Assembly: GCA_963823335.1 (NCBI GenBank) | Contig: CAWGLD010000002.1 | Coordinates: 64,001-128,000 of the forward strand | Source: an uncultured delta proteobacterium | GTDB taxonomy: Bacteria > Desulfobacterota > Desulfobacteria > Desulfobacterales > B30-G6 | Direction: 5' to 3' | DNA: 64,000 nt | Part shown: positions 25,772 to 63,496 of the stretch, one piece after another | Layout of the letters: the number at the start of each line of letters is the position of its first letter | Numbering within the stretch: the stretch's first letter is position 1 | Position numbers and translations under genes: made by a program | The notes under the pieces: generated by a model | The model's database searches: none | The model's input: only the letters and a program-made list of their open reading frames with translations | What the model was told of the DNA's origin: nothing

Positions 25772-27180
25772 ATGAAAATGAAGAAACCCGTACTGCTAAT
25801 TCCGGTGGAAAACCAGGTGCGCGAGCTGGATGCCAAGCTTCTGCTGGCGTGCGTTGCCGCCAAACGGGATTTTACCTCCATCATCGGCCCCAAAAGGGAA
25901 ATCGAAAACCACATCGCTTCTTTTCCGCGCGGTATTTTTTTGTCCAAGTCCCTGAGGATCGTGAAACGCGATTTTTTTCCGATATCACGATTGCTCGGCC
26001 ATGAAATCGTGGCCTGGGATGAAGAGGCGCTGGTTCATCTGCCGGCCGAAACGTATTTTTCACGCCGGCTCTCCCCTGTGGGAATGGAGACACGTGTCTC
26101 ATTTGTTTGCCTGGGGTGAGGACAACGCCGAATTGTGGCGGCAATACCCCCAATTGCCTCCTGGAATTCCGATTCACATTACCGGTAATCCGCGCGTGGA
26201 CCTGCTGCGGCCTGATATGCAGGGGTATTATAAAGATGAGGCAGATACAGATTCGTAAGAATTACGGCGAGTTCATCCTTATCAATACCAATTTTAATCA
26301 TGTCAATGCCTTCCATCCGGCCCAGAATTTGTTCCAGCCGGTGAAAGATTCCGGGGAGGAAGCCAGGTTCGGCCAGGCAGCCCGGGGGATGAATCGTGAG
26401 TACGCTGAAGGGTTCCGGGATCATAAACAGGCCGTTTTTGAGGATTTCCAGAAGCTGATACCCGAACTGTCAGAGTGCCTTTCCGGAACACACCATCGTG
26501 GTGCGTCCGCATCCCACTGAAAATCAGGATATTTATCACGAGATTGCCGCCCATTGCCGGCGGGTGAAGGTTACCAATGAGGGCAACGTGGTTCCCTGGT
26601 TGATGGCTGCCAGGGTCCTTATTCACAACGGTTGCACCACGGGCGTGGAAGCCTTTGTCATGCGTGTGCCCGCTGTTTCATACCGGGAGACGGTCAACGA
26701 TTTTTACGACGATGGCTTTTACCGCTTGCCCAACCGGTTGAGCCATCAGTGTTTCGATTTTGAAGAATTGCGGACAACCCTTTCGCGTATTCTAAGCGGT
26801 GATCTGGGTGCCGCTGAAGGGGAGGGGAGAAAAGCCCTTATCGACCATTTTCTGGCGGGACAGGATGGGCCCTCTGGCCTGTTCACGGATGGTCGATGTT
26901 CTGGACAGGGTCGCGGATGATATGTCCCACATGCCCGAACCGACCCTAAGGAAACGGCTGTGGGGTTGGTGCCAGGCCACCCGGCGTCGTGTGCGCAAGA
27001 CCCGCAATGCTTATCTGCCGGGTTCCTTCAAGTCCGTCGCTTTTGAAAGGCACCGATATCCCGGGATTACCTCCGGGGAGCTTGCAGAACGGATAGCACC
27101 GTTTTCAGCAGGTGCTCGGTGAAGACACCCAACTTCAATTGCGCCAAATCCGTGACAAGATATTTAAAATCAGCGCTTGA
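25772..27180 (+). pseudogene. Surface carbohydrate biosynthesis protein paralog A, multiply frameshifted
   Basis: LLIPVENQVRELD, WDEEALVH, GNPR.D, NTNFNHVN, VRPHPTE, HNGCTTGVEA across several frames. Confidence 0.8.
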
Positions 27181-27380
27181 AGTGAACTTGTGAACGATTG
27201 CAGCGAGACTATTGGTAACCCGTGCGTTCCTTGTTATATACTAGCCGATTAAAAGGCCACGACATGCTGCAATGCTGATTGATAATCTGCGGCGGTCATT
27301 TTTTCAATGAGAACCCGCTGGTCTTTGTCCAAGTTTTTGATTCAGTTGAAACCTTGACATTTTTCAAGGGCTGGCCAGTT

Positions 27381-28364
27381 TTAAGTTGTGGACGATTGGA
27401 TGGGGATCCCGTTAAAGGTTGGTTCCAGAAGAATATCTTCATAGGAAATCCCCAAAAACTTCGCCAGGTGACGCATAACGGATTCCGTTTGGTCTATCAG
27501 GCTCTCGAATTGAATGACGCAGACGCGATCACCAAACCTTTTCCGGGCTTCCATTATACCTCGGACACTTTTTTTCCAGTGGCCAAGTGCTGATTCGACA
27601 TCTCCGTAGATCTGCGGTTCGCGTCTGGAAGCGGAAACAAACCAGTGCACAGGATCCCTGATGATAGAAATCAGTCTGCCATCAGGATATATTTCAAAGA
27701 AGTTATTTATGGCCTGGTTCTGCAGGATCAATCCGGGTGCATAAGCTGTGACGAATTTCTTGTCAAGTCCGTGATTTTGATAATTGAGCCAGGCCCCGAA
27801 ACAGGCGGTCATATGGGCATCAAATACATGGCGCGTGTTTAGCGGTTGGACGGATTCCAAATATTTGATGAAAATTTGTCTTTCAAGAATCGGTAGATAG
27901 ATGAAGGGAAATCGTACATTGTCTTCTTCGTCTTGCTTGAAGTCTTTCTGGACCTGAACGGCATGCTTGGAGAAGATGTTCAACCATTCTTCCGGTTTGC
28001 CCTTGATATCAATTTCTGGCCATGAACCCTTGTTGAGGGTGTCAACCGCGAAAGCACGGGGATAAGCATGTAGTTTGGAATGTCCGTCCAGAAGACGGCC
28101 CAGCAGCGATCCCCCCGAGCATGAAATTTGAGAAACCAGCGCAAGGGGCGCAGTAACCGGTGATATGTGTTGTAAACAAATCTGAAGAATATCCTCCAGG
28201 TGAGATGTTCCGGCGTCGCTGACTTGCCTGATCATTCTTCTTCTGGGTCCATCTTTCAGGTATTGCACTATCTTTATCCTTTTATCCTCCGTAATAAGGC
28301 GACTTATAATCCTTTTGCCTATTTTTTTCTTGGCATCCAATTTTTTGATAAACGGATAAATCAT
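27381..28364 (-). CDS. Sulfotransferase family protein (degenerate 5'-PSB motif)
   Basis: SQISCSGGSLL..LLDGH, IIRDP..W..S; paralog of 29732-30772. Confidence 0.75.
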   Translation of the reverse strand: MIYPFIKKLDAKKKIGKRIISRLITEDKRIKIVQYLKDGPRRRMIRQVSDAGTSHLEDILQICLQHISPVTAPLALVSQISCSGGSLLGRLLDGHSKLHAYPRAFAVDTLNKGSWPEIDIKGKPEEWLNIFSKHAVQVQKDFKQDEEDNVRFPFIYLPILERQIFIKYLESVQPLNTRHVFDAHMTACFGAWLNYQNHGLDKKFVTAYAPGLILQNQAINNFFEIYPDGRLISIIRDPVHWFVSASRREPQIYGDVESALGHWKKSVRGIMEARKRFGDRVCVIQFESLIDQTESVMRHLAKFLGISYEDILLEPTFNGIPIQSSTT

Positions 28365-28382
28365 ATAATAGGTGTCCCTTTG

Positions 28383-29688
28383 TTATGCAAGCGTCGGCCG
28401 TTTGTTCGAAGCACAATTCACGATAAACTGTTCATAGGCGTCCAGCACATCCCTGTTGCTGTCACCCCCATAGACTACTTCCGAAAGAAAGGTCGCAACA
28501 CTTTTTTCACTGTACGGTACATCCGGCCTTTTGGGTCTGCAAGGATACTAAAGCATTCTTCAGTTCGAACTCATTGTGTATTATCCAACAGGCACCCAAT
28601 TCTTCAAACAAGGTTGTGTTGTCATGTAGATATTTAAGGTAAAGAACAGGCTTGCCGCGCATGAGCGCCTCGGTCATGACGCTGGAACCGACAACCAGAA
28701 GAACATCGGCCCATCCGAGCAGATCCGCTGTAAGCATATGGGATACATCCGGCAGGGGGTAGTTGTCGAATTGGTCCATGGTATTTGTCCGGGTGTGGGG
28801 TTTGATCACGGCTTCGATGCCTTTTTGTTCAGCGATGAGGCGACAGGAGGCATACATTCTTTCCATATCAAGCCGGCATTGAGGTTTGGAAGGCATTAGG
28901 ACAACTTTTAATTTTTCCGAATGCCTGCCGAACCCTGCAGTCGCCTTTGGTACAATTTCATTGTTTTGCTCAAGCCAGGTGCGGCAGTATCGGGCACTTC
29001 CGAGTACGGAGATTTTGCTCACAGTCACACCGGCTTTGACCAACAGGTCTTTGCGCAAGTTATCGGATGCGATGATGTGGTCGAACCGGTTGAATTTGGC
29101 GAATCTTCTTGATTCCGTCGATTTTGGTTTGGTCGTTTCGTTGGTATACAGCTGAACACCATGCGGTAGGGCCAGGGTGGGTATGGACATCTGCCCGGCG
29201 GCTTTCAAAAAGGCATCGACAACGTACAGTCTTGGCATGATGTAGTCAAAGCATACGGCCTGCGCATGGGTGCGCTCCAAAACCGATCGTGCCCACCGGG
29301 GGCCATAGTAAATTCGACGAGTGATTTTATAAAACATGGTTCCGGCTAGATCGGCCCTTCTGCCCAACCATTTTCTTAGTACCCCTGATGGTTTTTTTTG
29401 ATCGTAGGCCAGTTTCTGACAGGTCTTGTAACTCGCGCGAATGAGTGCGTAAAGAAATCGATGGAGCGGATCTCTTTTTTGGTCAAATGCATCGTACACA
29501 TAATCGACGATCATACCATGATCTTTTAAGAACTGCAGACGATAGTCCTGCTGGATATCATAGCGTAAGTTCATGCAGAAAACCGCAACCTCATAGCTGT
29601 CTTGGTGCAGTTTCCAGGCCACGGGGGTCAGGTGGTCTATGTCATTAAAATGCCTTACGAAAAATAAATACATATTTGTAACTTTCAC
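28383..29688 (-). CDS. Putative GT-B glycosyl/phosphotransferase (frameshift near C-terminus)
   Basis: PHG, LGSARY, IKPHTR, GSSVMTEA..RGKPV motifs typical of CDP-glycerol/capsule-type transferases; last ~45 codons in another frame. Confidence 0.55.
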
Positions 29689-29731: not shown

Positions 29732-30772
29732 TCACGGGATTGTCGTAACCACACTCAGGACCTGTGCATGTATGTCGCCGGTCATTTCCTTGATGGTATT
29801 CAATTCTTCCTCACTTAAAGTCTTGTATCTTTCAAGGGCACTGATCATGATGCCGGGTTTTTCAAGCTTAAAACTCGTATTCGGTTTTATGGGTATTTTA
29901 TTGAATGTCGGCGTCAATAATATGTCATCAAATCGGATGGTTAGGAAATCAGCCAGATAGCGCATCACCGGCTCGGTGCGTTGTACCAGATCGTCGAAGG
30001 TGATAATACAAACGTAATCACCATAGTTTTTTTTGTTGCGAATCATACTGCGCGTGCTCTCATTCCATTGATTCAGCGCTTTTCTGATGTTGCCATACTT
30101 ATCCAACTGGTGACGTTTGGCAGAGGGAAACCAGTTTTTAGGATCACGCACCACAGAGATCAATCGACCATCAGGGTATATCTCGAAAAATGACGCCATG
30201 TTCGTTTCCATAAATGTCATTCTAGGCGTGAAAGCGGTGACCCATTTTTTATTTCCACGACGATTCTGGTTGTTTATCCAGGCACCGAAATAGGAAGTCA
30301 TGTACGCGTCAAACACGTCTCTTTGGTTTACTTTACCTACAGATTCTAAATGTTTCAGGAAAAGCTTTTTCTGCAAGTAAGGTAGGAAGATAAAAAGGAA
30401 AGTCTCCTCGTACTTTGCCATTTTTTTATATCCATAGCGGAAATGCCGTACCACGATATCTTCGAAGAGAATTTCAAACCATCGTTCCGGGCGGTTGCCA
30501 AGATCAATGGGGGGCCAGATATCTTTTTTAGGATATCCGAACTTCAATTCATGAGGGTGGGCATGTACTTGAGGATGGCCATCGAAAAGCTGGCTCAGCA
30601 TGGATCCTCCGGAACGCTGGATTTGCGAAATTAACGCTAGCGGGACAGATACCGGTTGTATATATTCCAGCCAGGACTCATATGCGTTGGCCAAAAGTGT
30701 ACGGCTCTCATCAAGTGCTTTGCCGGTCAACCCGGAATTCGATTCAGATTTAAGCAGAGGTGTCAAACCCAT
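29732..30772 (-). CDS. Sulfotransferase family protein
   Basis: QRSGGSMLSQLFDGHP (5'-PSB-like), VVRDPKNWFPS (3'-PB). Confidence 0.8.
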   Translation of the reverse strand: MGLTPLLKSESNSGLTGKALDESRTLLANAYESWLEYIQPVSVPLALISQIQRSGGSMLSQLFDGHPQVHAHPHELKFGYPKKDIWPPIDLGNRPERWFEILFEDIVVRHFRYGYKKMAKYEETFLFIFLPYLQKKLFLKHLESVGKVNQRDVFDAYMTSYFGAWINNQNRRGNKKWVTAFTPRMTFMETNMASFFEIYPDGRLISVVRDPKNWFPSAKRHQLDKYGNIRKALNQWNESTRSMIRNKKNYGDYVCIITFDDLVQRTEPVMRYLADFLTIRFDDILLTPTFNKIPIKPNTSFKLEKPGIMISALERYKTLSEEELNTIKEMTGDIHAQVLSVVTTIP

Positions 30773-30827: not shown

Positions 30828-32230
30828 TCACGCGCTGATCCGGAAGAGACTGTGGCTTATTTTCTCTACATTGAGCCGGTCATCATCGCCCAGTATCTGC
30901 TGGAAACGTGCAACACGGTTACGCACCTCGGCAAGAGAAACTTCGGGATATTTATTTTGTTGGTGCTCCAGCGATCGGGTTGGATCTGTCTTGCGCAGTT
31001 TGATCCATCGCCGTATCCGGCGCCTGGTTGCCTTGAGCCACCCTTGCAGGCGATCGCCCATGGGTGGCCCCGGTAAACTGGATAGGTCGACCGCCGCTCT
31101 TTTGAGAACATCAATAATTTTCTCACAGGCCAGGGGCCCCTTTTGGGCGGCCAGATAGTGATCAATAAGCGCTTGCCGCTCACCTCCATTTCCAACACCC
31201 AGTTCCCCACAGAGGATTTTTTCCAAGGTTTGCCGCAACTCCTCGAAATTAAAGCACTGATGGCTGAGCATATTCGGCAGGCGGTAGAAGCCATAGTCGT
31301 AATCTTCATTTGTTGTGGCCCGATAACTGACAGTTGGAACTCCCATGGCAAAAGCCTCGACGCTGGTGGTGCAGCCGTTGTGAATCAAAGCTTTGCAAGC
31401 CATCAGCCAGAGCACAACATTACCCTCGTTTATTACATGCACCCGCTCACAGCCCGAAGTGATTTGTTGATAGATCTCGGGATTTTCTACTTGATGGGGA
31501 CGGACGATAATGGTGGTGTGGGGAAGGCCTTTTCAAGGGCCGGGATCATTTCTTGAAAATGTTCAAAAGTCGCCTGTTTAAGATCACGCAATCCTTCGGC
31601 ATACTCCCGGGGCATACCCCGGGCGGCCCGTCCGAATTCCGGCTCTATTCCTGGATTGTCAGTCGGCAGGAATAGATTGCGGATAGGAGAGAAAGCGTTA
31701 ACATGATTGAAATTGGTATTGATGAGAATGAAATCTCCATATGTTTCCCTTATTTTGCTGACTTCCTTTTCGTAATAGGGCTGTATCTCAGTGCGCAGCA
31801 AATCATTGCGCGGGTTGCCGGTAACATGGATCGGTAGATCGGGCGGCAGGTCAGGATACTGGCGCCACAACTCGGCGTTATCTTCTCCCCAGGCAAAAAG
31901 ATGGGAAAGGCAACCGATGGATACGGGTGAGAGCCTTCGGGAAAAATAGATTTCAGGCGGCAGGTGGACCAGGGCATCTTCATCCCAGGCCACGATTTCA
32001 TGGCCCAGTTTGCGTGCTACTTTCAAAAACTTGCTGTGTCCATACAGCAGGGATTTGGCAAGGTATATACCTCTCGGGAAATCTGCAATGCGTGCTTCCA
32101 CTTCCCGCTTGGAGCCGATGATGGACGGCAGCCCTCGTCTTGCCGCAATACAGGCCAGTAAAAGCTTGGCATCCAGCTCGCGTACCTGGTTTTCAACCGG
32201 GATCAATAAAACAGGTTTTTTCGACGTCAT
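30828..32230 (-). pseudogene. Surface carbohydrate biosynthesis protein paralog B (frameshift near 31500)
   Basis: ORFs 31487-32251 and 30828-31442 reconstruct the same family. Confidence 0.8.
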
Positions 32231-33373
32231 AGCACGTGGTCCTCCTTTCACATTTCGTGGACGTTCACGGTTTCAAAAGTTCAGGGATTCAAGGTTGCAT
32301 TGTAGAGCCCTGGATTCCATTTGAAATGCGTATTTACGGCAAAAGCATCAGCTTCATCAGGCCTGCTCCAAAATTTGAGGCCAAAATAATAATTATTTCA
32401 CAATAATCTGCAATGGACCACTGATATTTACTATACAGGTCAACAGCATTGCAAGCCCGATAAAGGATGGACATCGAACGTCCAACGTCGAACATCGAAT
32501 AGTGATATCGCTCAGTTCCGCAATTTAAATTTATTTTTTACGGCTTTCATTACATAATTTATTGCAATCACATCATGTTCACACATGGTTGATGCCATAG
32601 TCAAGATTGAATATTTAAGCAATCCTACCAGTCGAGAGCCTTCCTTAAATTTTCACTATTCAATTCTACGCCTCCGGCCGATCCGGATTGGGTATTTGAT
32701 GCACAATCGGTGATGAATTTTTTATAGTCGCCCAGCACGTTGCTGCTGGCGGCATCGCCGTATACAACTTCTGAACTGAATTTGGTGACATTTATCTCCT
32801 CATGTTACGATCAAACAGAGGGTGTTTACCACAAGAACCGGCTGCATGGCAAGCCCAATGAAGGATGAATATCGGGCAGACTGAACACCAAGTGCTGAGT
32901 ATTTGCGAAAATAGTTCGAAATCGAAACTTTGACCACGCAGGTGGTTAGGCCACTTACCCAATCCGGGCCTCTTCTTCTGGATTTTTTGTTTATGAAACA
33001 GATTTTACGATGGATAATCGGCCAAAACGCCCGACAAAATTGAAGTCAAAAGATTGATAATGGACCACTATCGGCAAGGCCTCCAACGCTGTCAAGAATC
33101 GGTTAATGCCATCTAATCTTTAAGCAGGGCAAATGCCGATGGGACAAAACCGTTAAAACTACAATGCCGGCTCAATATAGCAGCGGATATGGTCACGTCA
33201 AAATACTAGTTGACCCTCTTGATCGGTTACGCTATTTCTGGTATCAGGATATTCCAAAATTAATTGTGAAACTGGAACGAAAAATAGTTTTTTCAAACAT
33301 GCATGAATAATGACGTAGTTTTGTTTTTAATAACCTGTTAATTTTTTTGTTACAAAAAGTGGAGTTTACCCTA

Positions 33374-34433
33374 ATGGAAAAGCGTACATCACAAAAAGCC
33401 AAAGAGCAATACGAGAATAGGTGGGAGGAAGCCTTAGAAATTATTAAGAAAGATATTACTAACAACAAAAAAAGTTTGAGTGAAGTTTTAGACGATTGGC
33501 TTAAATATAAGGTATCAACTCGTTTTGATCAAAATTTCTATTTTGATTTTTACAAAAAATTAGGAATACCTATTAAAAGAGGGCAATCTCCTGAAAAACG
33601 TTACAGTAGTTCAAAATGGAAAATTCGCTGTTGCACCTTTAGATTCTATATTAGACCATAAATTTATTAAAATTTTGGCCAAATATATTTTAGAAAATAA
33701 AAATCGAATTGATTATGTTGTTGAACTTGGAAGTGGCATTGGTATTAACTTGTTTATTCTGGCTGATAAACTTGATCAAGCTATACTACGGCAGATAAAA
33801 TTTTTTTCTTGTGAATTTACAGATTCTGGGAATAAAGCCTGTGAAGAGTTACGTAGATTTAACAATGGATTAAATATGTCTATAGAACATTTTGATTATT
33901 ATAATCCAGATTTTTCGTTTCTTGAGCCAAATAAAAATGTATTATTCTTTACTGCACACTCGATTGAGCAGATTCCGAAAATAGATCGCGCTGTTTTCGA
34001 AGGAATGCTAAAAGTATCGAACCAATGCCATTGCTTTCACGCCGAACCGGTTGGATGGCAGTACGACGAAGAATTGAAGATTAAGCGGGAGCAATTTAAG
34101 CCATATCATTGGAAACGAAAAAAGACGAAATTGGGAAGGAAACTGCTTAAAATTGATCGATGGATGATCTCGAAATTAGGTATTGGTATTGTAGACAGCA
34201 CAAAAAGATATGGAATTGATATAAAGAAAAAGGATATTGGCAAATCGGATAAAGTTTCACCTACTGCAGCACTGTACTCATATTCAAAAGACTATAATAG
34301 TAATCTTGTCTCAATAATAAAGAAGATGGAAGCCGAGGGTTTAATTCGCATTGATTTAGAAATGGTAAATTTATATGGGAAAAAACCGTTTAATCCAAGT
34401 TCGGTTATTTCATGGCATAAGATTGTGAACTAG
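33374..34433 (+). CDS. AT-rich putative SAM-dependent methyltransferase (frameshift near 33610-33660)
   Basis: VVELGSGIG motif I, CEFT, HSIEQIP, EPVGWQ; very AT-rich. Confidence 0.55.
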
Positions 34434-34467
34434 AGATTGTTACTTCGATGTTTAAATACCTCTCAAG

Positions 34468-34558: not shown

Positions 34559-34564
34559 ATTCCA

Positions 34565-38041: not shown

Positions 38042-38073
38042 GAAGGCTGTATCCCAATTGGAAAAATGAGGTC

Positions 38074-42237: not shown

Positions 42238-42241
42238 TTCT

Positions 42242-55759: not shown

Positions 55760-56551
55760 ATGAAAGCAGTCATATTAAGTGCAGGGCAGGGGAAACGTCT
55801 GCTGCCACTGACAGCGGATCGCCCAAAATGCATTCTTCCCATTAGGGGACAGACTCTCGTTGAATGGCAAATTGACGAACTTGCCAAATGTGGAATCGAC
55901 CAGGTGACCGTTGTCGTGGGGTATCGTGCGCACAAAGTCGAAGAAATTCTGCGCGCACGTTATAGTTCCAACCGGGTACGTACGGTTTACAATGAGGCTT
56001 TTGCTGTTTCAGACAACCTGGTGAGCTGCTGGACTGTCCAGGACGAGATGGACGAAGAATTTATTTTACTGAACGGCGATACCTTGTTTGAGGCGGCTGT
56101 GTTGAAGCGTTTACTTGGCACAGGCGGTCATCCCGTAACCGTGGTCATCAACCAGAAAAATGCCTATGACGCGGACGACATGAAGGTCGAACTGGAAGGG
56201 TGCCGACTGGTCAAGATCGGCAAAGATCTATCGCCCGGTCAGGTTCACGGTGAATCCATCGGTATGATCCTGTTTCAAGACCAGGGCCCGATGTTGTTCC
56301 GCGACGCCATGGAGAAAGCCCTGCGCGATCCTGCTGCACAGAAAAAATACTATCTGTCGGTCATCGATGATCTGGCCCGGAAATTTCCGGTGTGGACCTG
56401 CTTGATTAACGGTCTGCAGTGGTGTGAAGTCGATTTTAAAGCAGACCTTAAACAGGCGGAAAAAGTCGTAGCGGCCTGTTGCCCCGACCGGCAGAGGAAC
56501 GCCGGAGACGACACCTGCCAGTCAACCGGGGCAACCCTGTCGAACCTCTAA
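55760..56551 (+). CDS. Nucleotidyltransferase (LicC/phosphocholine cytidylyltransferase-like)
   Basis: ILSAGQGKRL.PLT..PK, LNGD, DDMKV, GESIG, WCEVD. Confidence 0.82.
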   Translation: MKAVILSAGQGKRLLPLTADRPKCILPIRGQTLVEWQIDELAKCGIDQVTVVVGYRAHKVEEILRARYSSNRVRTVYNEAFAVSDNLVSCWTVQDEMDEEFILLNGDTLFEAAVLKRLLGTGGHPVTVVINQKNAYDADDMKVELEGCRLVKIGKDLSPGQVHGESIGMILFQDQGPMLFRDAMEKALRDPAAQKKYYLSVIDDLARKFPVWTCLINGLQWCEVDFKADLKQAEKVVAACCPDRQRNAGDDTCQSTGATLSNL

Positions 56552-56701: not shown

Positions 56702-57778
56702 ATGATTATTGACCGTTATATAATGCGGGAAATCATCAAACCAACGCTGGCGATCTGTGCGATCCTGATCTTGATTTTTGGGTGCTACATGGCAACGGGT
56801 TTCCTGATGGACGCTCTTGCCGGTCAATTACCGGGTACAACGATCCTCCTGCTAATTCTGCTTAGAATCGTTATCGCGCTGGAGGTGTTGTTACCCACTA
56901 CCTTGTATTTGTCGGTGGTCATCGCCCTTGGACGGCTGTATAAAGATTCAGAAATGACCGCTCTATTTGCTTGTGGTGTCGGTACCGGGCGCGTGTTACA
57001 GCCGGTCTTTTACTCCGCCCTGATCATTGCGCTGATTGTTGCCAGCCTGTCCCTTTTCATAAGACCCTTGGCTTACGACAGATATTACCGATTAAAGGCC
57101 CAGGCCCAGGGAACGTTCGATCTTTCTCGCATGAATGACGAAACTTTTTATGAAACTGCGGACGGCAGACGCATCATCTACGCCCAAAAGGTAGACCACC
57201 AGCGAGATAGAGCCAAACGCGTTTTTATTCGAACTGAACGTGATGATACGTTGCAGGTTATTCATGCCAGGCGAGCCAGTCAAACCGAAGATCCAGTATC
57301 CGGAAAAAAAATTATCGTATTCAGCGATGGCTATCTTTATGAATTTTCGCGCACAGGAGACCATGGCAGGGTCCTTCAATTTGAAAAATCAGCAATGACC
57401 TTGGAGCCCACAGAAAATCTGCTGCTGCGGTACCGTGTCAAAGCGGCCACGACCAGATCTATTGCCCGGTCGACCGATCGTGAAGAAATCGCCGAATTCC
57501 AGTGGCGCCTTTCGACGCCGTTGGCCACTATCATGCTGGCGCTGTTGGGTGTCCCACTGAGCCGCTCATCCCCACGCCAGGACAAATATACCAAAGTCAC
57601 CACGGCCGTGGTGATTTTTGCCGTTTATTACAATCTCAGCGCCTTGGCAAAGAAGTGGGTTGAAAAAGGTGTCCTCGATACCTTTCCTGGAATTTGGTGG
57701 GTTCAGTTTCTGATGGCCGGACTGTTGTTGTGTCTTTTCTGGCAGCCAATGCTGGATTTCTTCCGGCGGGGCAGGTAA
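56702..57778 (+). CDS. lptF: LptF-family permease
   Basis: IIDRYIMREI, LGRLYKDSEMTAL..CG, AEFQWR. Confidence 0.88.
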   Translation: MIIDRYIMREIIKPTLAICAILILIFGCYMATGFLMDALAGQLPGTTILLLILLRIVIALEVLLPTTLYLSVVIALGRLYKDSEMTALFACGVGTGRVLQPVFYSALIIALIVASLSLFIRPLAYDRYYRLKAQAQGTFDLSRMNDETFYETADGRRIIYAQKVDHQRDRAKRVFIRTERDDTLQVIHARRASQTEDPVSGKKIIVFSDGYLYEFSRTGDHGRVLQFEKSAMTLEPTENLLLRYRVKAATTRSIARSTDREEIAEFQWRLSTPLATIMLALLGVPLSRSSPRQDKYTKVTTAVVIFAVYYNLSALAKKWVEKGVLDTFPGIWWVQFLMAGLLLCLFWQPMLDFFRRGR

Positions 57779-57785: not shown

Positions 57786-58853
57786 ATGAAAACCATCGAT
57801 CGACATATCGGCAGCAGTTTCCTGCGCAGCTTCGGGCTGGTTGTGATCATTTTGGTCGTGTTGTTCAGTTTTCTGGAATTGTTGTCCCAGTTGGATGATG
57901 CCGGCAAAGGGAATTATCAGGTCCAGGATGTTTTTTTGTTCATTGGTTTGACACTCCCGAAACGCATGCTTGACTTGATGCCTATCAGTACATTGCTCGG
58001 CAGCGTCGTCGCCCTGGGTTTACTGGCCGACCATGGAGAACTGCTCGCCATGCAGGCCGGCGGAATATCGGTTCAGCGGATTTGCTGGTCGATGTTTGCC
58101 ACTGGAATGGTTCTGATATTTTTAACCGCCCTGCTGGCAGAAATGATTGTGCCGCCACTGGACCAGCTGGCCCGCAAAAATAGAGCCCGGGCAATATCCG
58201 GCTCAGAATTCACATTAACAAAGCAGGGCTTCTGGGCGCGACGTGGTTCTACATATATCCATGTCGGTAAAACGCATTCCGGCGGTGTTGCCAACGATCT
58301 GGATATTTTCGAGGCGGATGAGACGGGCCGTCTAAAGACGTATACATATGCCCGCGAGGCGAACATCCAGAACAAGGATCAATGGGTACTCAGGGAGATT
58401 ACCCGCAAAAAATTTACCGATGAGGGTATGGAAACAACACGCATGCCCAGTTTGATACTGGATTCGTTTTTAAGCTCGGAACAGGTTGGATTTCTTGAAA
58501 TACCGGCTGACAGTCTGTCTTCTTCCGATCTTTACCGGTATGCTGAGGCCATGCGTGCAAATGGACAAAATGTCGATCGTTATGCGTTGTCTCTGTGGCG
58601 CAAGTTAAGCGTGCCTTTGTCGACCGGTGCTATGGTGTTACTTTCGCTTACGTTTGTTTTCGGCTTCACGCGCAGGATCACAGCTGGTAAACGTATCATG
58701 ATGGGTTCCTTTGTAGGGGTTATTTTTTATTCCGGCGACCAGGTTATTGTCCATCTGGGGCTGCTGTTGAGCCTCAGTCCCATGATTACCGCGATGACTC
58801 CGGTCGTATTGATTTCAGCAATTGCGCTCTGGAAATTGCGACGGGTGGTATAA
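57786..58853 (+). CDS. lptG: LptG-family permease
   Basis: MKTIDRHI, LG.LA..GELLAMQAGG.S, LWRKL. Confidence 0.88.
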   Translation: MKTIDRHIGSSFLRSFGLVVIILVVLFSFLELLSQLDDAGKGNYQVQDVFLFIGLTLPKRMLDLMPISTLLGSVVALGLLADHGELLAMQAGGISVQRICWSMFATGMVLIFLTALLAEMIVPPLDQLARKNRARAISGSEFTLTKQGFWARRGSTYIHVGKTHSGGVANDLDIFEADETGRLKTYTYAREANIQNKDQWVLREITRKKFTDEGMETTRMPSLILDSFLSSEQVGFLEIPADSLSSSDLYRYAEAMRANGQNVDRYALSLWRKLSVPLSTGAMVLLSLTFVFGFTRRITAGKRIMMGSFVGVIFYSGDQVIVHLGLLLSLSPMITAMTPVVLISAIALWKLRRVV

Positions 58854-58898: not shown

Positions 58899-59912
58899 TC
58901 ATTCGTTTTTTTGCACCGGGTTACTGAGCCGTTGCTCACTCTCTCTGATAAATCGCTTGTCAGAGGGTGAGTAAATGCGGATCTCACGTCTTACTATCCA
59001 ACCAGTGTCGACGTGTGTTATACGATAGATATCGTAACGGGCGCGGCGTTCAGGTGTGCGGCTGAGAGCCGAAACCGAAGGTATGCCGACAACCGGCAGA
59101 TTGCCACTCTGGGTTTGCAGGTTGTGCCGCAGGGCCTCATGAGCGTGACCATGCAGAATCAACTCGGCGCCATAACGCGCCAGAAGCGCCTGCAAGGCCG
59201 TCGCATCTGTCAGGCGTTTTCGCCAGCTGACCGAACCGGGTACCGGTGGATGGTGGATCAGCACGACCCGGTAAAATCGTTTTCGGGCTGTTTGGGACAA
59301 GATTGTGGCCAGTTTTTGCAACTGGCTTATACCGACACTTCCCACGGCCAAATGCGGTGCGCTGGGCCGGGCAGTGCAAACACCGATAATGGCAACACAG
59401 CCCCTGGTGCGTAAGCTGGGAAAGATGGCGTTGGTACCTTCTAAACTGTGGTCATCTTTTTGGAGGTTTTCCGAGAGCATATAGTCGGTCCAGTGGGCCA
59501 TGGTTTGATGCCAGTCGGTTTTAACATAGGTGTCGTGATTACCGGGAATGACGGTAATTTTTGTCGGGGGGCCTAAGGACTGCAGCCATTGTCTGGCTTT
59601 TATAAATTCGGCCGGTAGGCTCAGGTGAGTCAGATCGCCGGTGACGGCAATGTGATCGGGGTCCGTCCGGGCAAGGTCTGTTTTCAGGGCTGCCAAAACG
59701 TGATCTCCGTGCTCGGCACCGCGGTGCAGTTTCCATCTTAAATACCCCAACAGGCGTTTACCGGCCAAATCCCGGCCGGTAATCTCCTTCATGCAGGAAA
59801 TATGCGGGTCGGAAAGATGGGCCAACGCAAACGTTTTAGACGCCACCTGTTTATCCGGTATGGGAGATCGATCATCGATCGTTTGGGATATGGTGAATTT
59901 TTTAGAAATCAT
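58899..59912 (-). CDS. Metallophosphoesterase
   Basis: HLSDPH, TGDL, PGNHD, HHPP, HGHAH. Confidence 0.88.
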   Translation of the reverse strand: MISKKFTISQTIDDRSPIPDKQVASKTFALAHLSDPHISCMKEITGRDLAGKRLLGYLRWKLHRGAEHGDHVLAALKTDLARTDPDHIAVTGDLTHLSLPAEFIKARQWLQSLGPPTKITVIPGNHDTYVKTDWHQTMAHWTDYMLSENLQKDDHSLEGTNAIFPSLRTRGCVAIIGVCTARPSAPHLAVGSVGISQLQKLATILSQTARKRFYRVVLIHHPPVPGSVSWRKRLTDATALQALLARYGAELILHGHAHEALRHNLQTQSGNLPVVGIPSVSALSRTPERRARYDIYRITHVDTGWIVRREIRIYSPSDKRFIRESEQRLSNPVQKNE

Positions 59913-60216: not shown

Positions 60217-61413
60217 ATGTCTATTTCTGGTCACATAATCGGTGACAGTCCCGTAAAAATATGGGGATTGACATCTTACGAACGAAAATCTCGTGTTCTA
60301 AAAAGTGCTGGTGTGACACACATTGTGGATGATATTGCCGCTGTGCCGGAGGGCAGTTCGGTCCTGTTGCTCAGGGGCGATTTACTGTTTGATGACCGGG
60401 TGATCAACTACCTGGTGCAGACACCTGATACCCTGTTGAAGATTCCGCAAGGGCCCACAGATGTATGTGTTGCCGCACATGTTGCCATGGACCAGGCCAT
60501 TGAAGCCCGGAACGCGATTTCAGAACCATCCAGCACGGTATTTCCAGTGGGAATAAAGATCGAAACACTGGATAAGCTGTCCATCTCTTTTCAACAAAGG
60601 CTGCTCAAATTCGATCCACCCTTTGTGCTGCCGATCAAATCTGAGCACAAACGAGATTTAGAGCGTCGGCTTTTTGACTGGTCATATAAAGGGGTGACCG
60701 ATTGTGTCACCAAGTGGGTCTGGCCGCGCCCGGCGCGATGGGTTGTCGGCCAATGTGTCCGCTTTGGATTTCGACCGAACCATGTAACCGTTCTGGGCTT
60801 GTTTCTGGCCATACTGGCAGGAATTTTATTTGCTTATGGCTGGTATGGCTCGGGCTTGCTGGCCGGCTGGCTGATGACATTTTTGGATACTGTGGATGGT
60901 AAACTGGCCCGTGTTACCGTTACGTCCAGCAAGTTCGGTCATTATTTCGATCACATCATTGATCTGGTCCATCCACCCCTGTGGTACATTTTCTGGGGGT
61001 TGGGTATGTCCCAGGTCAATTTTGGCGGGTTGTCCCGTACCATTGTATTCTGGATGATCGTGGCCGGCTATATCGGCGGTCGTCTTGTGGAAGGTGTTTT
61101 TCTGACCTGGCTGGGCAAATTCGGAATCTTCTGCTGGCGTCCCATGGACGCTTATTTTAGACTGATTACGGCGCGGCGCAATCCGTGTTTGCTTTTGTTG
61201 ACAGTCGGTTATCTTACGGGTTTTCCGGACTGGGGTTTGTTTGCGGTGGCCGTCTGGACCGTGGCGACCAGCATTTTCCTGCTTATACGCCTTCTGATGG
61301 CACTCAAAACACGGCTGGCGGATGGTCCCATACGGACCTGGTTTTTGGATATCGACCCGGGCAGGCGGCAGCAACCACTGGCAGTCAGATTGTTTACGCA
61401 TCGCGTGGAGTGA
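60217..61413 (+). CDS. CDP-alcohol phosphotransferase with N-terminal extension (CpgA-like)
   Basis: KGVTD.VTK, PNHVT, DTVDGKLAR...S..G..FD..ID. Confidence 0.85.
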   Translation: MSISGHIIGDSPVKIWGLTSYERKSRVLKSAGVTHIVDDIAAVPEGSSVLLLRGDLLFDDRVINYLVQTPDTLLKIPQGPTDVCVAAHVAMDQAIEARNAISEPSSTVFPVGIKIETLDKLSISFQQRLLKFDPPFVLPIKSEHKRDLERRLFDWSYKGVTDCVTKWVWPRPARWVVGQCVRFGFRPNHVTVLGLFLAILAGILFAYGWYGSGLLAGWLMTFLDTVDGKLARVTVTSSKFGHYFDHIIDLVHPPLWYIFWGLGMSQVNFGGLSRTIVFWMIVAGYIGGRLVEGVFLTWLGKFGIFCWRPMDAYFRLITARRNPCLLLLTVGYLTGFPDWGLFAVAVWTVATSIFLLIRLLMALKTRLADGPIRTWFLDIDPGRRQQPLAVRLFTHRVE

Positions 61414-61442
61414 TTGAGAGATACGCTTTTGGAGAGGTATAG

Positions 61443-62429
61443 ATGCTGCCCGATCACATAAAGTCTCCTGGAACACCGAATATCGGCGTGCTGATGAACC
61501 CCCTCAGCGGTGGAAATCTTAACGGTCTGGATTCAGTGCGGAGTGTTATCAACCAGAATCCGCAAGTGCTTCATCGTGATGTTCAGACACCCCAGGATGT
61601 TTTAGAAACCCTGTTGGATTTTGCCCGCCGGGATGTGAATTTATTGGCGGTCAATGGTGGTGACGGTACAGTACAGGCGGTGCTGACCAACCTTTTTCTT
61701 CATCGCCCATTTAGCGTCATGCCGCTGCTTGCCGTCCTGCAATCCGGCACAACCAGTATGACCGCCAGGGATGTGGGGTTTTCAGGATCACGGGCTAAAT
61801 CTTTAAGGAAATTGTTTAAATGGGCCCACAGCGGCGAAGGTGAACCAAAGGTAATTCAGCGCCCGGTTTTGCAAGTTCAAGCACCCGGCCATCCGACCTA
61901 TTACGGTATGTTTTTTGGTGCTTCGGCCATCTACCAGGGGATTGAATACTTCCATCGCAAGGTAAATACGAAAGGACTGCGGGGTGAGCTGGGCCCCGGT
62001 ATAACCATTTTCCGCTTTCTGTGGTCTGCACTCCGACGACGCAGTGGCTTCATACCACCCATAAATGTGTCTGTCACGGTGGATGGCAAGCCGTCACAAA
62101 ACTTCGATTCCTTTGTGGTTCTTGTCAGTTCTCTGGAACGGCTGTTCCTTGGAATTTACCCATACTGGGGTATGGAGTCAGGCCCGTTACATTACACTGC
62201 CGTTCGGGCGCATCCACGGCATCTGCTGATGGCGCTGCCAGGCTTGTTGCGTGGTCGTCGGGGTAAATTCGGCACCATTGAAAACGGCTATTACAGCCAT
62301 AATGCCCATGAAATCAAGTTGAACCTCGACGGCGGTTTCACCCTGGATGGGCAGCTTTATACCCCTGAGAACCGGGAAAAACCCACCGTGGTGCGCTATG
62401 GCGGTGTGGCGAACTTTATACGGATTTAA
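61443..62429 (+). CDS. Diacylglycerol/sphingosine kinase family (candidate ceramide kinase, CpgB-like)
   Basis: NPLSG, NGGDGT, GTT.MTA.D, LDGQ. Confidence 0.85.
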   Translation: MLPDHIKSPGTPNIGVLMNPLSGGNLNGLDSVRSVINQNPQVLHRDVQTPQDVLETLLDFARRDVNLLAVNGGDGTVQAVLTNLFLHRPFSVMPLLAVLQSGTTSMTARDVGFSGSRAKSLRKLFKWAHSGEGEPKVIQRPVLQVQAPGHPTYYGMFFGASAIYQGIEYFHRKVNTKGLRGELGPGITIFRFLWSALRRRSGFIPPINVSVTVDGKPSQNFDSFVVLVSSLERLFLGIYPYWGMESGPLHYTAVRAHPRHLLMALPGLLRGRRGKFGTIENGYYSHNAHEIKLNLDGGFTLDGQLYTPENREKPTVVRYGGVANFIRI

Positions 62430-62544
62430 TGTTGACGGTTTCGTAAAAAGCCCAACTTCTGCGTTGCAGCTTGCTGCGAGGTTCTTCAATTTGAACTTAT
62501 TACGAAACCGTCCAGTTCGGACTTTTTACGGGTTTATCAATGTT
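62428..62544. repeat. MITE-like element with imperfect terminal inverted repeats
   Basis: ttgacggtttcgtaaaaagcc … ggactttttacgggtttatcaa. Confidence 0.6.
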
Positions 62545-63496
62545 GAAAATTCCCCCTCAATTGATCGACATCATCAGTCGTAAGACAGACCGCACAGCCT
62601 CGCCGGCGATCAATGTATTGATGGATGAAATCCTGGAACGCCATGGTGAGTCCGCTAAGGCCATCCTGTTTTACGGCTCCTGTCTGCGCTCGGGGGACGA
62701 CCTCGATGGACTGGTGGATCTCTATTTGCTGGTGGACGACTACCGCAGGGCCTATAAAAGTCGTTTGCAGGCCGCTTTGAACGTGCTGCTGCCACCCAAT
62801 GTTTACTACCTGGAGAAAAAATTCCAGGGTCACATGGTGCGGACCAAGTATGCTGTCCTGTCCCTGGCGGATTTTCAAAAGGGAACGTCCATGGGCTGGT
62901 TTCATTCCTATCTGTGGGGCCGGTTCTGCCAGCCGACTGCTTTGCTGTTCGCGCGTAGCGACAAGGTGGCCCAGCTGGTATTCAAATGCTTTGCCCAGGC
63001 CGTTATGACATTTGTCCGGCGTGTGCTGCCGAGGATTTCGCCTGAATTTACCGCCCGGCAGCTGTGGGGCAGGGGTCTTAGCCTGTCCTATGGTGCCGAA
63101 CTCCGATCGGAAAACCCGGAAAAGCAGGCCCGCCTCTTTGATGCCGCTGCAGCGTATTACGAGGAAATCACGGGTCTGGCAGTGGAAGCCCTTTCCTACC
63201 CCGTTCAAGTCCACAAAAGCGACGCTTTGCCACGCTACAGCGTGCACATTACAGCAGGAGAACGACACATCAGCCGACTGGCGTGGAAACTGCGATCATG
63301 GCAGGGCAAACTGCTTTCCATACTGAGACTCCTCAAAGCCACGGCCACCTTTGAAGGTGGCGTGGACTATATTCTGTGGAAGATCGAGCGTCACTCGGGG
63401 GTCACCGTCCATGTCGAGCCACGACTGAAACAACGCCCGTTATTGGCCATGTGGGTGTTGGCTTGGCGGTTGTACCGCCAAGGTGGGTTTCGATAA
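62540..63496 (+). CDS. Nucleotidyltransferase-fold protein (Tam41-like; CpgC-like by synteny)
   Basis: FYGSCLR…DLYLLVDDY, LPPNVYY, KYA, WGRF.QP, DYILWKIERHSG. Confidence 0.7.
   Translation: MLKIPPQLIDIISRKTDRTASPAINVLMDEILERHGESAKAILFYGSCLRSGDDLDGLVDLYLLVDDYRRAYKSRLQAALNVLLPPNVYYLEKKFQGHMVRTKYAVLSLADFQKGTSMGWFHSYLWGRFCQPTALLFARSDKVAQLVFKCFAQAVMTFVRRVLPRISPEFTARQLWGRGLSLSYGAELRSENPEKQARLFDAAAAYYEEITGLAVEALSYPVQVHKSDALPRYSVHITAGERHISRLAWKLRSWQGKLLSILRLLKATATFEGGVDYILWKIERHSGVTVHVEPRLKQRPLLAMWVLAWRLYRQGGFR

Follow-up and report, generated by a model that had tools for sequence, protein, structure and literature searches.

A sugar-acid cassette embedded in the sphingolipid locus of a sediment bacterium

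For the locus analyzed here, the available portions of the Caulobacter and Sphingomonas literature supply the sphingolipid precedent. NTP transferases of the kind found in this locus make CDP-glycerate in Caulobacter, as described in those portions, and the available part of Zik et al. states that longer phosphoglycerate chains could not be excluded. The window, a 64,000-nucleotide stretch of DNA from an uncultured delta proteobacterium, contains genes of this kind together with a cassette for sugar-acid synthesis.

Layout of the locus

Profile searches of the open reading frames in the window place a single locus of about 39 kb at 24495-63496 (Table 1). An earlier note on this DNA had set the left edge at 25772, which is wrong since the locus begins at 24495, and the genes to the right of the Tam41-like gene are unrelated to it. 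The ceramide genes encode FAAL, a CerR-like reductase, an ACP, Spt, and a GNAT acyltransferase, and judging by these families ceramide synthesis can be carried out. A head-group set like that for Caulobacter CPG2, LptF/LptG, and an MsbA-like ABC exporter are also present. Embedded in this locus, and bracketed on both sides by its sphingolipid genes, is a cassette of about 21 kb with a YrbI phosphatase, NeuB-like synthase, SDR, ALDH, CMP-transferase, transketolase-like enzyme, copies of TIGR04396, a PLD-like protein, a GT4-like protein, and 3 sulfotransferases. All gene classes that the earlier note had named, from FAAL through the sulfotransferases, were found where it had put them, every one on the minus strand. 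The short gaps it described are also real, ranging from 4-base overlaps to 255 bases between Spt and the first TIGR04396 gene. It had placed the remaining ceramide genes on the other side, and there we find GNAT, 2 NTP transferases, LptF/LptG, a metallophosphoesterase, a CDP-alcohol phosphatidyltransferase, a DAG-kinase-like kinase, and a weak Tam41-like protein. The GNAT gene is conserved within the sphingolipid cluster of other genomes, and of 80 related loci, 75 have the Tam41-like gene behind that for the lipid kinase. Contigs from estuary RNA libraries (four runs) cover 28-30 of the 30 bins of 35500-53000; among the RNA contigs listed, none spans the Spt/ABC or ABC/KdsC junction, which leaves co-transcription of spt and the cassette a conjecture.

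Table 1. Features of the locus, with window coordinates and the matches behind each assignment
Feature	Coordinates	Strand	Evidence
Secreted protein closing the cassette on the left	24495..25475	-	N-terminal signal-like segment
Decayed TIGR04396 transferase copy	25805..27174	+	tblastn with intact G004 copy: six pieces, three frames
Sulfotransferase a	27381..28364	-	PF13469, 57.3 bits vs cut-off 27
GT4-like glycosyltransferase (weak)	28507..29688	-	PF13439, 25.7 bits, below cut-off 28.5
Sulfotransferase b	29732..30772	-	PF13469, 56 bits
TIGR04396 copy split by one frameshift	30828..32251	-	Two ORFs match N- and C-terminal halves of TIGR04396
Protein with possible SAM-binding motif	33675..34433	+	Glycine-rich motif by eye; no Pfam/NCBIfam family match
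Sulfotransferase c	34565..35419	-	PF00685, 28.7 bits vs cut-off 22
TIGR04396 transferase B	35562..36983	-	TIGR04396, 341.5 bits vs cut-off 125
PLD-like phosphatidyl-transfer enzyme, two PLDc_2 stretches	36956..38041	-	PF13091, 84.2 bits
TIGR04396 transferase A	38074..39453	-	TIGR04396, 373.3 bits
Fused transketolase-like thiamine-diphosphate enzyme	39501..41441	-	PF00456, PF02779, PF02780 all match
CMP-ulosonate synthetase	41479..42261	-	PF02348, 86.9 bits; PseF 143 bits, below cut-off 205.7
Aldehyde dehydrogenase ALDH	42242..43714	-	PF00171, 503 bits
Short-chain dehydrogenase SDR	43970..44782	-	PF13561, 140.9 bits; 4-base overlap with NeuB-like gene
NeuB-family ulosonate synthase	44779..45855	-	PF03102, 266 bits, plus SAF domain
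YrbI/KdsC-family sugar-acid phosphate phosphatase	46094..46612	-	TIGR01670, 111.7 bits vs 106.95
MsbA/PglK-like ABC exporter, putative flippase	46630..48435	-	PF00664 and PF00005
Serine palmitoyltransferase Spt	48472..49671	-	NF047599, 623.1 bits vs cut-off 500
Dedicated acyl carrier protein	49668..49916	-	PF00550, 36.3 bits
CerR-like NAD-dependent reductase	49913..50872	-	PF01370, 102 bits
Fatty acyl-AMP ligase FAAL (acyl-ACP synthetase role)	51029..52810	-	NF006624, 785 bits vs cut-off 600
NTP transferase a	53035..53838	-	PF12804, 44.6 bits
GNAT acyltransferase, candidate bacterial ceramide synthase	54303..55577	-	PF00583, 29.5 bits vs cut-off 20.7
NTP transferase b, inositol-phosphate cytidylyltransferase-like	55661..56551	+	PF12804, PF00483; NF041135 73 bits
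LptF, sphingolipid-locus type	56702..57778	+	TIGR04407, 334.8 bits
LptG, sphingolipid-locus type	57786..58853	+	TIGR04408, 333.7 bits
Metallophosphoesterase	58899..59912	-	PF00149, 50.3 bits
CDP-alcohol phosphatidyltransferase	60217..61413	+	PF01066, 40.3 bits
DAG-kinase-fold lipid kinase, candidate ceramide kinase	61443..62429	+	PF00781, 40.3 bits
Weakly Tam41-like protein, candidate nucleotidyltransferase	62540..63496	+	PF09139, 21.6 bits, below cut-off 24

NeuB and NeuA are present at the family level, but both proteins fall below the NCBIfam cut-offs for Neu5Ac and pseudaminic acid enzymes (the synthase scores 312 against 399.65 for NeuB and 245.9 against 340.25 for PseI). The transketolase-like protein is likewise under every NCBIfam transketolase cut-off. 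The YrbI/KdsC-family phosphatase is not expected to serve Kdo synthesis because the genome appears to lack Kdo-8-P synthase.

Five copies of TIGR04396 occur in the locus, and two of them are disrupted. One is split by a frameshift that could be a sequencing error; by tblastn, a single intact gene in genome G004 matches both of its ORFs, at 88% and 81% identity (frames -1 and -3). The plus-strand ORFs at 25772-27122 are fragments of what was once a single TIGR04396 gene, now decayed and broken by several changes of frame, and the family matches there include an internal TGA. The GT4-like gene is kept in G004, G007, and G042, the protein with the possible SAM-binding motif is 89% identical in G004, and sulfotransferase c is the most frequent sulfotransferase companion of the cassette across loci. 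The secreted protein has no Pfam or NCBIfam match and a structure model with pLDDT 33.6. In G004, G007, and G042 its gene likewise closes the cassette, and it stays in place in G005, which has other genes instead of the cassette. Homologs 24-30% identical sit in sphingolipid loci that have no cassette, such as L144 and L160. The stretch between the ABC exporter and this gene is variable, with other genes in G005 and extra dTDP-sugar genes in G042.

Linkage of the cassette to spt

Within the order, a sample of 401 genomes contained spt in 48 and a NeuB ortholog in 39, with both in 33, NeuB alone in 6, and spt alone in 15; all are metagenome bins, so a gene not found is not proven absent. The neu block is thus nearly confined to spt-positive genomes (33/39). 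Of the 33 genomes with both, 28 have NeuB directly behind spt-ABC, on the strand of spt and 1.9-4.0 kb downstream of it, while in the other 5, which are fragmented assemblies, the 2 genes are on different contigs. A neu block occurring independently of spt would have counted against the earlier note's idea, which survives this comparison. Among public loci, Spt-ABC is immediately upstream of the NeuB ortholog in 35 of 80, and spt is not adjacent in 16 of the 51 with sufficient upstream DNA. Where at least 8 kb of downstream DNA is available, the SDR gene comes after NeuB in 39 of 40 loci, and the ABC exporter gene follows Spt in all syntenic loci.

The recurrence of this adjacency in many genomes is far beyond chance, with the qualification that many of those counted are closely related and the counts are not independent. 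One could still suppose that a mobile glycan island landed beside spt in an ancestor and was then inherited, leaving the adjacency functionally meaningless. This kinship would fit such a history, as would the 65-90% identity that cassette proteins show between distant taxa, a sign of horizontal transfer. However, the order Spt-ABC-(KdsC)-NeuB-SDR is found in at least 8 genera of six families, linkage is kept despite rearrangement in L137 and L146, and a true Spt is still present in 4 of 5 tested genomes in which the cassette is unlinked (the exception, G064, is small at 2.3 Mb). Together with the sphingolipid genes on both flanks, this makes a meaningless adjacency very improbable.

The TIGR04396 transferases

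The predicted structure of transferase A (pLDDT 88.2) has a GT-B fold, with TarL as its top structural match (Z 19.1). CDP-alditol phosphotransferases and 2-epimerases have the folds nearest to TIGR04396 (Z 16-19), ahead of Kdo and sialyl transferases (Z 12-14), so we only infer that these enzymes transfer a glycosyl residue from a CMP-sugar. They could instead be phosphotransferases of the TagF kind, lengthening a phospho-acid chain on the sphingolipid with, for instance, more phosphoglycerate units taken from a CDP-donor, in which case the NeuB branch would supply a different, minor substituent. The top matches are indeed CDP-ribitol and CDP-glycerol phosphotransferases (Z 19.1 and 16.2), the locus has its two NTP transferases of the CDP-glycerate-making kind, and the longer chains left open by Zik et al. 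would suit this role. The distribution of the family argues otherwise, since TIGR04396 travels with NeuB, SDR, and the CMP-transferase (32 of 40 NeuB loci) and not with the kinase module (3-4 of 80 loci), and many sphingolipid loci have NTP transferases without any TIGR04396 gene. We therefore regard a TagF-like role as improbable.

A more serious alternative, though still an unlikely one, is that the cassette makes a separate glycoconjugate, either a protein glycan or a teichulosonic or capsule-type ulosonic-acid polymer with a different lipid anchor, and sits beside sphingolipid genes only as a co-regulated or co-transferred envelope function. TarL and TagF, both polymerases, and capsule polymerases have the nearest folds, and several TIGR04396 copies per locus would suit a polymer. 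TIGR04396 also occurs beside another NeuB in the spt-negative, LPS-bearing genome G019, so the family is not lipid-specific. Loci of the Thiohalobacter and Thiogranum types have the cassette apart from spt, and the region from the ABC gene to the secreted-protein gene varies like an antigen locus (G005, G042). In searches with Pfam and NCBIfam profiles, however, no polyprenol-phosphate initiating transferase, Wzx, Wzy, ligase, or capsule exporter family was found in the cassette, and the only exporter that travels with it is the MsbA-like ABC next to spt. The presence of spt in most carriers, linked or unlinked, and the persistence of linkage in rearranged loci also argue against this alternative.

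Lipopolysaccharide genes and the proposed product

LpxC, LpxB, LpxK, WaaA, and KdsA were not found in this genome, while LptD, LptC, and APS kinase were. This locus holds the only LptFG pair of the genome, of a type that travels with sphingolipid genes, which supports the dedicated LptFG proposed earlier. Of 80 loci with the kinase module, 53-55 also have LptFG. The LptG of the window is 64% identical to one of two copies in G024 but 18% identical to that of the LPS-bearing congener G008, with no match in G001, and so resembles the copy that co-occurs with spt rather than the LPS copy. In G042, however, which is without LpxC, the single LptG match has 22% identity to that of the window. Among the 48 spt-positive genomes, LpxC was not found in 24, of which four have a completeness rating of 100%, whereas it was missing from just 6 of 53 spt-negative relatives. 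It is still found in 17 of 33 genomes with both spt and NeuB, so the cassette is not tied to LPS loss. Since the lineage appears to be without a lipid A or Kdo pathway, the product of the locus is probably an LPS surrogate, a point that the earlier note missed.

We favor, with some confidence, a reading in which LPS is replaced in this organism by a ceramide-anchored glycolipid that carries a ulosonic acid and probably also sulfate; the ABC exporter would flip it, and Lpt would export it. The NeuB-like synthase and YrbI phosphatase would use a phosphorylated sugar and PEP to make the ulosonic acid; the SDR, ALDH, and thiamine enzyme would remodel the sugar, and CMP would activate it. The GT-B TIGR04396 enzymes would add one or several residues to a ceramide-based acceptor at the cytoplasmic face, with PAPS-dependent sulfotransferases attaching sulfate. 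The MsbA-like exporter would then flip the completed lipid, and the LptFG of the locus, with LptC and LptD encoded elsewhere, would bring it to the cell surface. Because a lipid A/Kdo pathway was found neither in this genome nor in its closest spt-positive kin, the product would be the main outer-leaflet lipid. If true, a complex anionic sphingolipid stands in for lipopolysaccharide as the outer-membrane lipid.

The earlier reading of the product as a ulosonate- and sulfate-decorated ceramide is partly supported by these results, and its likeness to gangliosides or sulfatides is only an analogy. At the family level, the lipid kinase, CDP-alcohol transferase, 2 NTP transferases, and phosphoesterase match the Caulobacter ceramide (di)phosphoglycerate gene set, and the LptFG pair agrees with Caulobacter LptF2G2 as presented in the available part of a 2026 preprint.

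Extent and gene content of the locus

All gene classes named in an earlier note, which had proposed that joined spt, neu and sulfotransferase genes make a ganglioside- or sulfatide-like bacterial lipid, were recovered when gene classes were assigned by scanning products of the window ORFs with Pfam (32 products) and NCBIfam (31 products). The start given there, 25772, is not upheld: the left end of the locus is a gene beginning at 24495 for a secreted protein of no recognised family, and the plus-strand ORFs from 25772 are fragments of a fifth, decayed TIGR04396 gene. On the right the locus ends at 63496, and genes past this point are unrelated. The genome under study (G000), an assembly of 11 contigs totalling 4.37 Mb, has a rated completeness of 93.9% and a contamination of 4.6%.

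From 52810 the minus strand encodes, in order, a fatty acyl-AMP ligase, an NAD-dependent reductase, an ACP, serine palmitoyltransferase (Spt), an MsbA/PglK-like ABC exporter, a YrbI/KdsC-family phosphatase, a NeuB-family synthase, an SDR, an aldehyde dehydrogenase (ALDH), a CMP-transferase, a fused transketolase-like enzyme, a TIGR04396 protein, a PLD-like enzyme, a second TIGR04396 protein, a sulfotransferase, a TIGR04396 gene split by one frameshift, a second sulfotransferase, a weak GT4-like transferase and a third sulfotransferase, ending at 27381. To the right of the ceramide genes lie genes for a GNAT acyltransferase, two NTP transferases, LptF, LptG, a metallophosphoesterase, a CDP-alcohol phosphatidyltransferase, a kinase of DAG-kinase fold and a weakly Tam41-like protein. 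Spacing between spt and the first TIGR04396 gene ranges from a 4-base overlap to 255 bases. A promoter/terminator scan of 34000-53500 found 17 terminator-like sites against 22.5 expected, none of them within the intergenic gaps of the operon.

Spt scored 623.1 bits against NF047599, whose curated equivalog cut-off is 500. The ACP, reductase and acyl-AMP/ACP ligase beside it (PF00550, PF01370 and NF006624) are encoded on one strand with gaps of at most 157 bases. The GNAT domain (29.5 bits, cut-off 20.7) is kept in the locus across relatives and is a candidate ceramide synthase. Gene kinds of the CPG2 type are also found in the spt locus, namely a PF00781 kinase, a PF01066 CDP-alcohol transferase, a PF12804/NF041135 IMPCT-like cytidylyltransferase and a PF00149 phosphoesterase. 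Used as the query of a profile scan, the kinase matched 80 loci from many phyla, none of them from Caulobacter. In 75 of the 80 the kinase is followed by the Tam41-like gene; 53-55 have LptF or LptG alongside, 57 the phosphoesterase and 46 the CDP-alcohol transferase. These kinase and Tam41-like pairs, mostly with LptF/LptG (loci L116-L195), occur in bins labelled Nitrospirota, Gamma- and Betaproteobacteria, Myxococcota, Rokubacteria and Binatia, and the pair is also found in the cultured Desulfoprunum benzoelyticum DSM 28570 and Desulfopila aestuarii DSM 18488.

Neither TIGR04396 copy A nor the secreted protein at the left end had a credible match in a sequence search of solved structures (best E 0.12 and 0.88). 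The predicted model of the secreted protein, from a six-row alignment, has a pLDDT of 33.6, and for it a protein atlas returned nameless clusters and a weak DUF3108 lead at rank 9, which we do not count as evidence. The syntenic locus of a near relative (G004) carries a second GT4-like gene (L020:1948-3105) at the position of the ORF-poor stretch of the window, in which tblastn found no remnant of that gene.

Elsewhere in the window, a pyrrolysine gene set adjoins methylamine methyltransferase genes, and an IS200-like gene adjoins a YpsA/SLOG-family gene. Apparent in-frame TAG codons in the NeuB orthologues of G418 and G419 proved to be the natural stop codon closing the gene.

Coordinates of features in the window
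Feature	Position	Remark
Circularly permuted YpsA/SLOG-family protein	9008-9832	
IS200-like transposase-domain protein	9870-11090	
Pyrrolysine gene set with methylamine methyltransferase genes	12649-22950	
PylD-like protein	13095-13958	pyrrolysine set
ATP-grasp PylC-like protein	13955-15160	pyrrolysine set
Class II tRNA-synthetase-core protein	15180-16022	pyrrolysine set
Corrinoid protein	16275-17075	pyrrolysine set
MttB, in-frame TAG	21060-21062	same frame resumes after
MtbB, in-frame TAG	22609-22611	same frame resumes after
Secreted protein	24495-25475	left end of locus
TIGR04396 gene fragments	25772-27122	plus strand
ORF-poor stretch	32251-33675	low G+C (0.387 in bin 32001-34000)
TIGR04396 copy B	35562-36983	
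TIGR04396 copy A	38074-39453	
ACP, reductase and acyl-AMP/ACP ligase	49668-52810	

Contigs from four estuary metatranscriptome runs, at 90-99% identity, cover 28-30 of the 30 bins of 35500-53000. Among the matches listed, RNA contigs bridge the NeuB/SDR, KdsC/NeuB, PLD/TIGR04396, Spt/ACP and CerR/FAAL junctions; no contig bridging Spt/ABC or ABC/KdsC is among them (32 of 484 matches), which speaks neither for nor against a single transcript. These records are assembled contigs of relatives, from RNA libraries that may also contain DNA, and show at most that the relatives' loci are represented in such libraries.

Association of the cassette with sphingolipid genes

If the neu block occurred independently of spt in relatives, the proposed joint product would lose its footing. 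This pattern was mostly not seen. Among 401 genomes of the order, each at least 85% complete, Spt scored over the cut-off in 48 and a NeuB orthologue (E <= 1e-100, 58-100% identity) was found in 39; 33 of these 39 also have Spt, 6 have NeuB alone, and 15 genomes have Spt alone. Four of the NeuB-alone genomes (G133, G373, G387 and G390) belong to genera that have spt-positive members, and their assemblies run to 410-1680 contigs; the copies that diverge most, with 58% and 64% identity, are those of the other two (G045 and G282). Of the 33, 28 have NeuB on the contig and strand of spt, 1.9-4.0 kb past it, and five (G194, G249, G268, G337 and G405) have Spt and NeuB on separate contigs. These linkage counts cover related genomes and overstate independence.

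The same association is found in a set of 61 near relatives that includes G000. Spt is over the cut-off in 8 of them, and 6 of these 8 have, 3-5 kb downstream of spt, a NeuB orthologue with an identity of 79% or more; in G002 the orthologue is broken across two contigs. Synteny maps made by tblastn with 33 window proteins showed full synteny with the window in G004 and G007. G042, from another family, keeps the Spt-ABC-KdsC-NeuB-SDR-CMP-transferase-TIGR04396 order with added dTDP-sugar genes, and in G024 and G044 contig ends interrupt the locus here, with the continuation on other contigs. In G005, which belongs to the genus of G000, the cassette is replaced by about 7 kb of different genes (L029:3802-10955), which encode a sulfatase-domain protein, a class II aldolase-like protein and four proteins without a family. 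The replacement sits between the ABC exporter and the conserved gene for the 24495-type secreted protein, which gives this site the look of a variable head-group cassette.

Public sequences gave 245 tblastn-confirmed loci. In the best 80 of the 245, Spt is upstream in 35, 16 are without Spt despite at least 6 kb of upstream sequence, and 29 are too short to judge. The unlinked loci come chiefly from bins labelled Thiohalobacter, Thiogranum, Gammaproteobacteria or Geobacteraceae; among five genomes with an unlinked cassette, a true Spt (>620 bits) is encoded elsewhere in four, and LpxC is present in all five. In L137 and L146 the cassette is on the opposite side of the sphingolipid genes, and the linkage has therefore outlived rearrangement. 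Homologues of the secreted protein are found within cassette-free sphingolipid loci (e.g., L144, L160 and L188), so the cassette is embedded in the locus, not beside it. Two cultured strains with sphingolipid loci (L144 and L160) have no NeuB orthologue at E <= 1e-40.

A separate observation concerns L104, from a bin labelled Sedimenticola, where the NeuB cassette is immediately preceded, on its upstream side, by genes resembling LptF (41% identity) and LptG (32%). In this genome of 2.3 Mb a true Spt was not found and LpxC was partial only.

Predicted sugar acid and its putative transferases

The NeuB-family synthase scores below the NCBIfam equivalog cut-offs for both NeuB (312 against 399.65) and PseI (245.9 against 340.25), and the CMP-transferase, of the CTP_transf_3 family, falls below that for PseF (143.1 against 205.7). 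No UDP-GlcNAc-modifying enzyme (2-epimerase or dehydratase/aminotransferase/acetyltransferase) was found by Pfam or NCBIfam among the proteins of 24495-53000. Since these amino-sugar steps are absent and the enzymes fall below the NeuB cut-off, the sugar is probably not N-acetylneuraminic acid. A Kdn- or Kdo-like enzyme set is present, with a PF03102 synthase, a TIGR01670 YrbI phosphatase (111.7, cut-off 106.95) and a PF02348 CMP-transferase; the model for Kdn-9-P phosphatase gave 93.4 against a cut-off of 180. Because KdsA is missing from the genome, the YrbI phosphatase would not be serving Kdo. This and the lack of UDP-GlcNAc-modifying enzymes lead us to infer that the route to the ulosonic acid, like those to Kdn and Kdo, starts with a phosphorylated aldose.

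Cassette companions were counted over 40 loci whose sequence extends 8 kb or more past NeuB on its downstream side. The SDR and the CMP-transferase each accompany it in 39 of 40, ALDH in 33, TIGR04396 in 32, the transketolase-like enzyme in 27 and a sulfotransferase in 24. Pfam and NCBIfam detected no polyprenol-phosphate initiating phosphoglycosyltransferase, Wzx/Wzy, Wzm/Wzt, ligase, OPX/PCP or capsule exporter in 24495-53000, which argues for a product built directly on a lipid and flipped by the neighbouring ABC exporter.

The TIGR04396 proteins match TIGR04396 strongly and BFO_1060 weakly (NCBIfam), and their genes neighbour those for NeuB and the CMP-transferase. A model of copy A built from 16 copies has a GT-B fold with a pLDDT of 88.2. 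Foldseek gave modest matches, with query TM-scores of 0.31-0.43, and VIA-align placed the model alongside several known structures.

VIA-align comparison of the TIGR04396 copy A model with known structures
Structure	Z	rmsd (A)	Aligned residues
TarL	19.1	4.0	304
UDP-GlcNAc 2-epimerase	18.4	4.2	301
Capsule polymerase with CMP	16.8	4.0	316
TagF	16.2	4.1	317
WaaA	13.8	6.0	274
Polysialyltransferase	12.2	5.5	263

By its modelled fold, the family is a nucleotide-dependent GT-B transferase, and the gene company of its members suggests that they transfer a CMP-sugar. Full-text literature searches found no paper on TIGR04396. Proteins of the TIGR04396/BFO_1060 kind have been linked to transfer of pseudaminic or legionaminic acid onto protein glycans in other bacteria, and compared with these the lipid acceptor proposed here would be new. 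The locus thus gives an uncharacterised family a testable acceptor.

Envelope context and comparison with known systems

LpxC was not found over the cut-off in G000, where a 20-bit fragment was the only match, and WaaA, LpxB, LpxK and KdsA (Kdo-8-phosphate synthase) were not found in this genome of 93.9% completeness and 11 contigs. LptD, LptC and APS kinase are present, and the LptF/LptG pair of the window is the only one in the genome. By gene content, with Raetz and Kdo genes missing and outer Lpt parts kept, G000 would be an LPS-free diderm. G001, of the same genus, has LpxC, LpxB, LpxK and a split KdsA, so that one genus holds predicted LPS-bearing and LPS-less species and offers a natural comparison.

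LpxC is present in 48 of the 61 near relatives; it is missing in 7 of the 8 with spt and in 6 of the 53 without, four of these six being less than 85% complete. In the order sample it is missing in 24 of the 48 spt-positive genomes: all five genomes of genus g1, all six of g31, 12 of the 13 of g33 and a single g25 genome. Four of the 24 are rated 100% complete. LpxC is present in the remaining 24, among them each of the 12 of g13. The LPS-less state seems to have arisen several times in these sediment anaerobes. LpxC is retained by 17 of the 33 genomes with spt and the cassette, and the cassette is not restricted to LPS-less cells. In another genome of the order (G020, rated 98% complete) neither LpxC nor Spt was found; its congener G106 has both.

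The LptG of the window shares 88% identity with the G005 copy. G024, a genome with LPS genes as well as spt, has two copies: one is 64% identical to the window protein, and the other, like LptG of the LPS-bearing congener G008, reaches only 18-22%. G001 has no match to the window protein at E <= 1e-10. The LptFG pair is of a sphingolipid-locus type, set apart from the canonical LPS pair. G042 is without LpxC, yet its sole LptG match is 22% identical, which cuts against a simple story, as does the LpxC kept by about half of the genomes with spt and the cassette.

The linkage of spt with neu put forward in the earlier note stands, with 28 of 33 adjacent, and the decorated ceramide remains a prediction. 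The reading we favour, and think rather probable, is that the product is a ceramide-anchored, ulosonic-acid-bearing, probably sulfated glycolipid that is exported by a sphingolipid-type Lpt system and stands in for LPS in this lineage. More tentatively, and with slightly more doubt than belief, we suggest that several Desulfobacterales lineages swapped LPS for a ceramide-anchored "lipo-oligosaccharide." Its inner acidic sugar would be a CMP-activated ulosonic acid made by a NeuB-type enzyme and taking the place of Kdo; it would bear sulfate esters and leave by the Lpt machine through a sphingolipid-specific LptFG pair; and the decorating cassette would be a transferable module common to sulfur-oxidising Gammaproteobacteria and other phyla, there alongside LPS.

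If true, this reading would add a new class to the bacterial glycosphingolipids and a second, independent path to an LPS-free outer membrane. Few natural examples bear on the open question of how Gram-negative bacteria can do without lipid A; Sphingomonas and engineered Caulobacter are the examples named in the papers drawn on here (PMC11324152, PMC12275187, PMC9393093, 10.64898/2026.04.12.717747). The locus points to a further, unrelated group, one of abundant sediment anaerobes, and to a system in which the newly proposed sphingolipid branch of the Lpt pathway would be the only one. Full-text literature searches found no paper on a bacterial sphingolipid with a nonulosonic acid or sulfated glycan, nor on LPS loss in Desulfobacterales. 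The predicted lipid class, ceramide with a bacterial ulosonic acid and sulfate, could serve as a sediment biomarker. In the Black Sea, 1-deoxyceramides bearing sulfono and sulfate groups are reported to correlate with Desulfobacterota (PMC11334938, ISME J), and their structures differ from the lipid proposed here.

The closest described arrangement is the Caulobacter crescentus locus CC_1152-CC_1168 for ceramide and ceramide diphosphoglycerate (CPG2). Published descriptions list there, besides five genes for ceramide, those for a ceramide kinase, a CDP-alcohol transferase resembling PgsA, a phosphoesterase, two nucleotidyltransferases, one producing CDP-glycerate, and a putative flippase (CC_1166); LptF, LptG and LptC are present as second copies, required during sphingolipid production (PMC11324152, PMC12275187, PMC9393093, 10.64898/2026.04.12.717747). 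As there, one locus in the window contains genes of the acyl-ACP synthetase, CerR, ACP and Spt kinds and a GNAT candidate ceramide synthase, together with those of the kinase, CDP-alcohol transferase, phosphoesterase, two nucleotidyltransferases, LptF/LptG pair and putative ABC flippase. The likeness is one of gene families and arrangement, with CpgA-D, the ceramide synthase and LptF2G2 mapped by their descriptions. Unlike the window, the Caulobacter locus as published is without a ulosonic-acid, TIGR04396, PLD or sulfotransferase cassette, and unlike G000, Caulobacter is described as retaining LPS and a second, canonical LptFG pair.

A state like that of G000 is given for Sphingomonas by a preprint, in whose account LpxC, LpxB and WaaA are missing, LptD and LptC-type parts are retained, and the sole LptFG pair is located with the sphingolipid genes (10.64898/2026.04.12.717747). 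The phylum differs, the closest named public records to the window being uncultured "delta proteobacterium" and Desulfobacterales bins. Sphingomonas glycosphingolipids bear glucuronic acid and neutral sugars, whereas the acid sugar predicted for the window is a CMP-activated ulosonic acid, with sulfotransferases.

Animal gangliosides and sulfatides resemble the proposed ceramide product, with its nonulosonic acid or sulfate ester, by analogy only. In its predicted steps the pathway would be like assembly of the Kdo-lipid A core: PEP and an aldose phosphate are condensed, a YrbI phosphatase acts next, the sugar acid is activated with CMP, and GT-B enzymes transfer it to a lipid at the cytoplasmic face, before ABC flipping and Lpt export. 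It would differ from that system in having a NeuB-family synthase in place of KdsA, TIGR04396 transferases in place of WaaA and, as proposed, a ceramide anchor.
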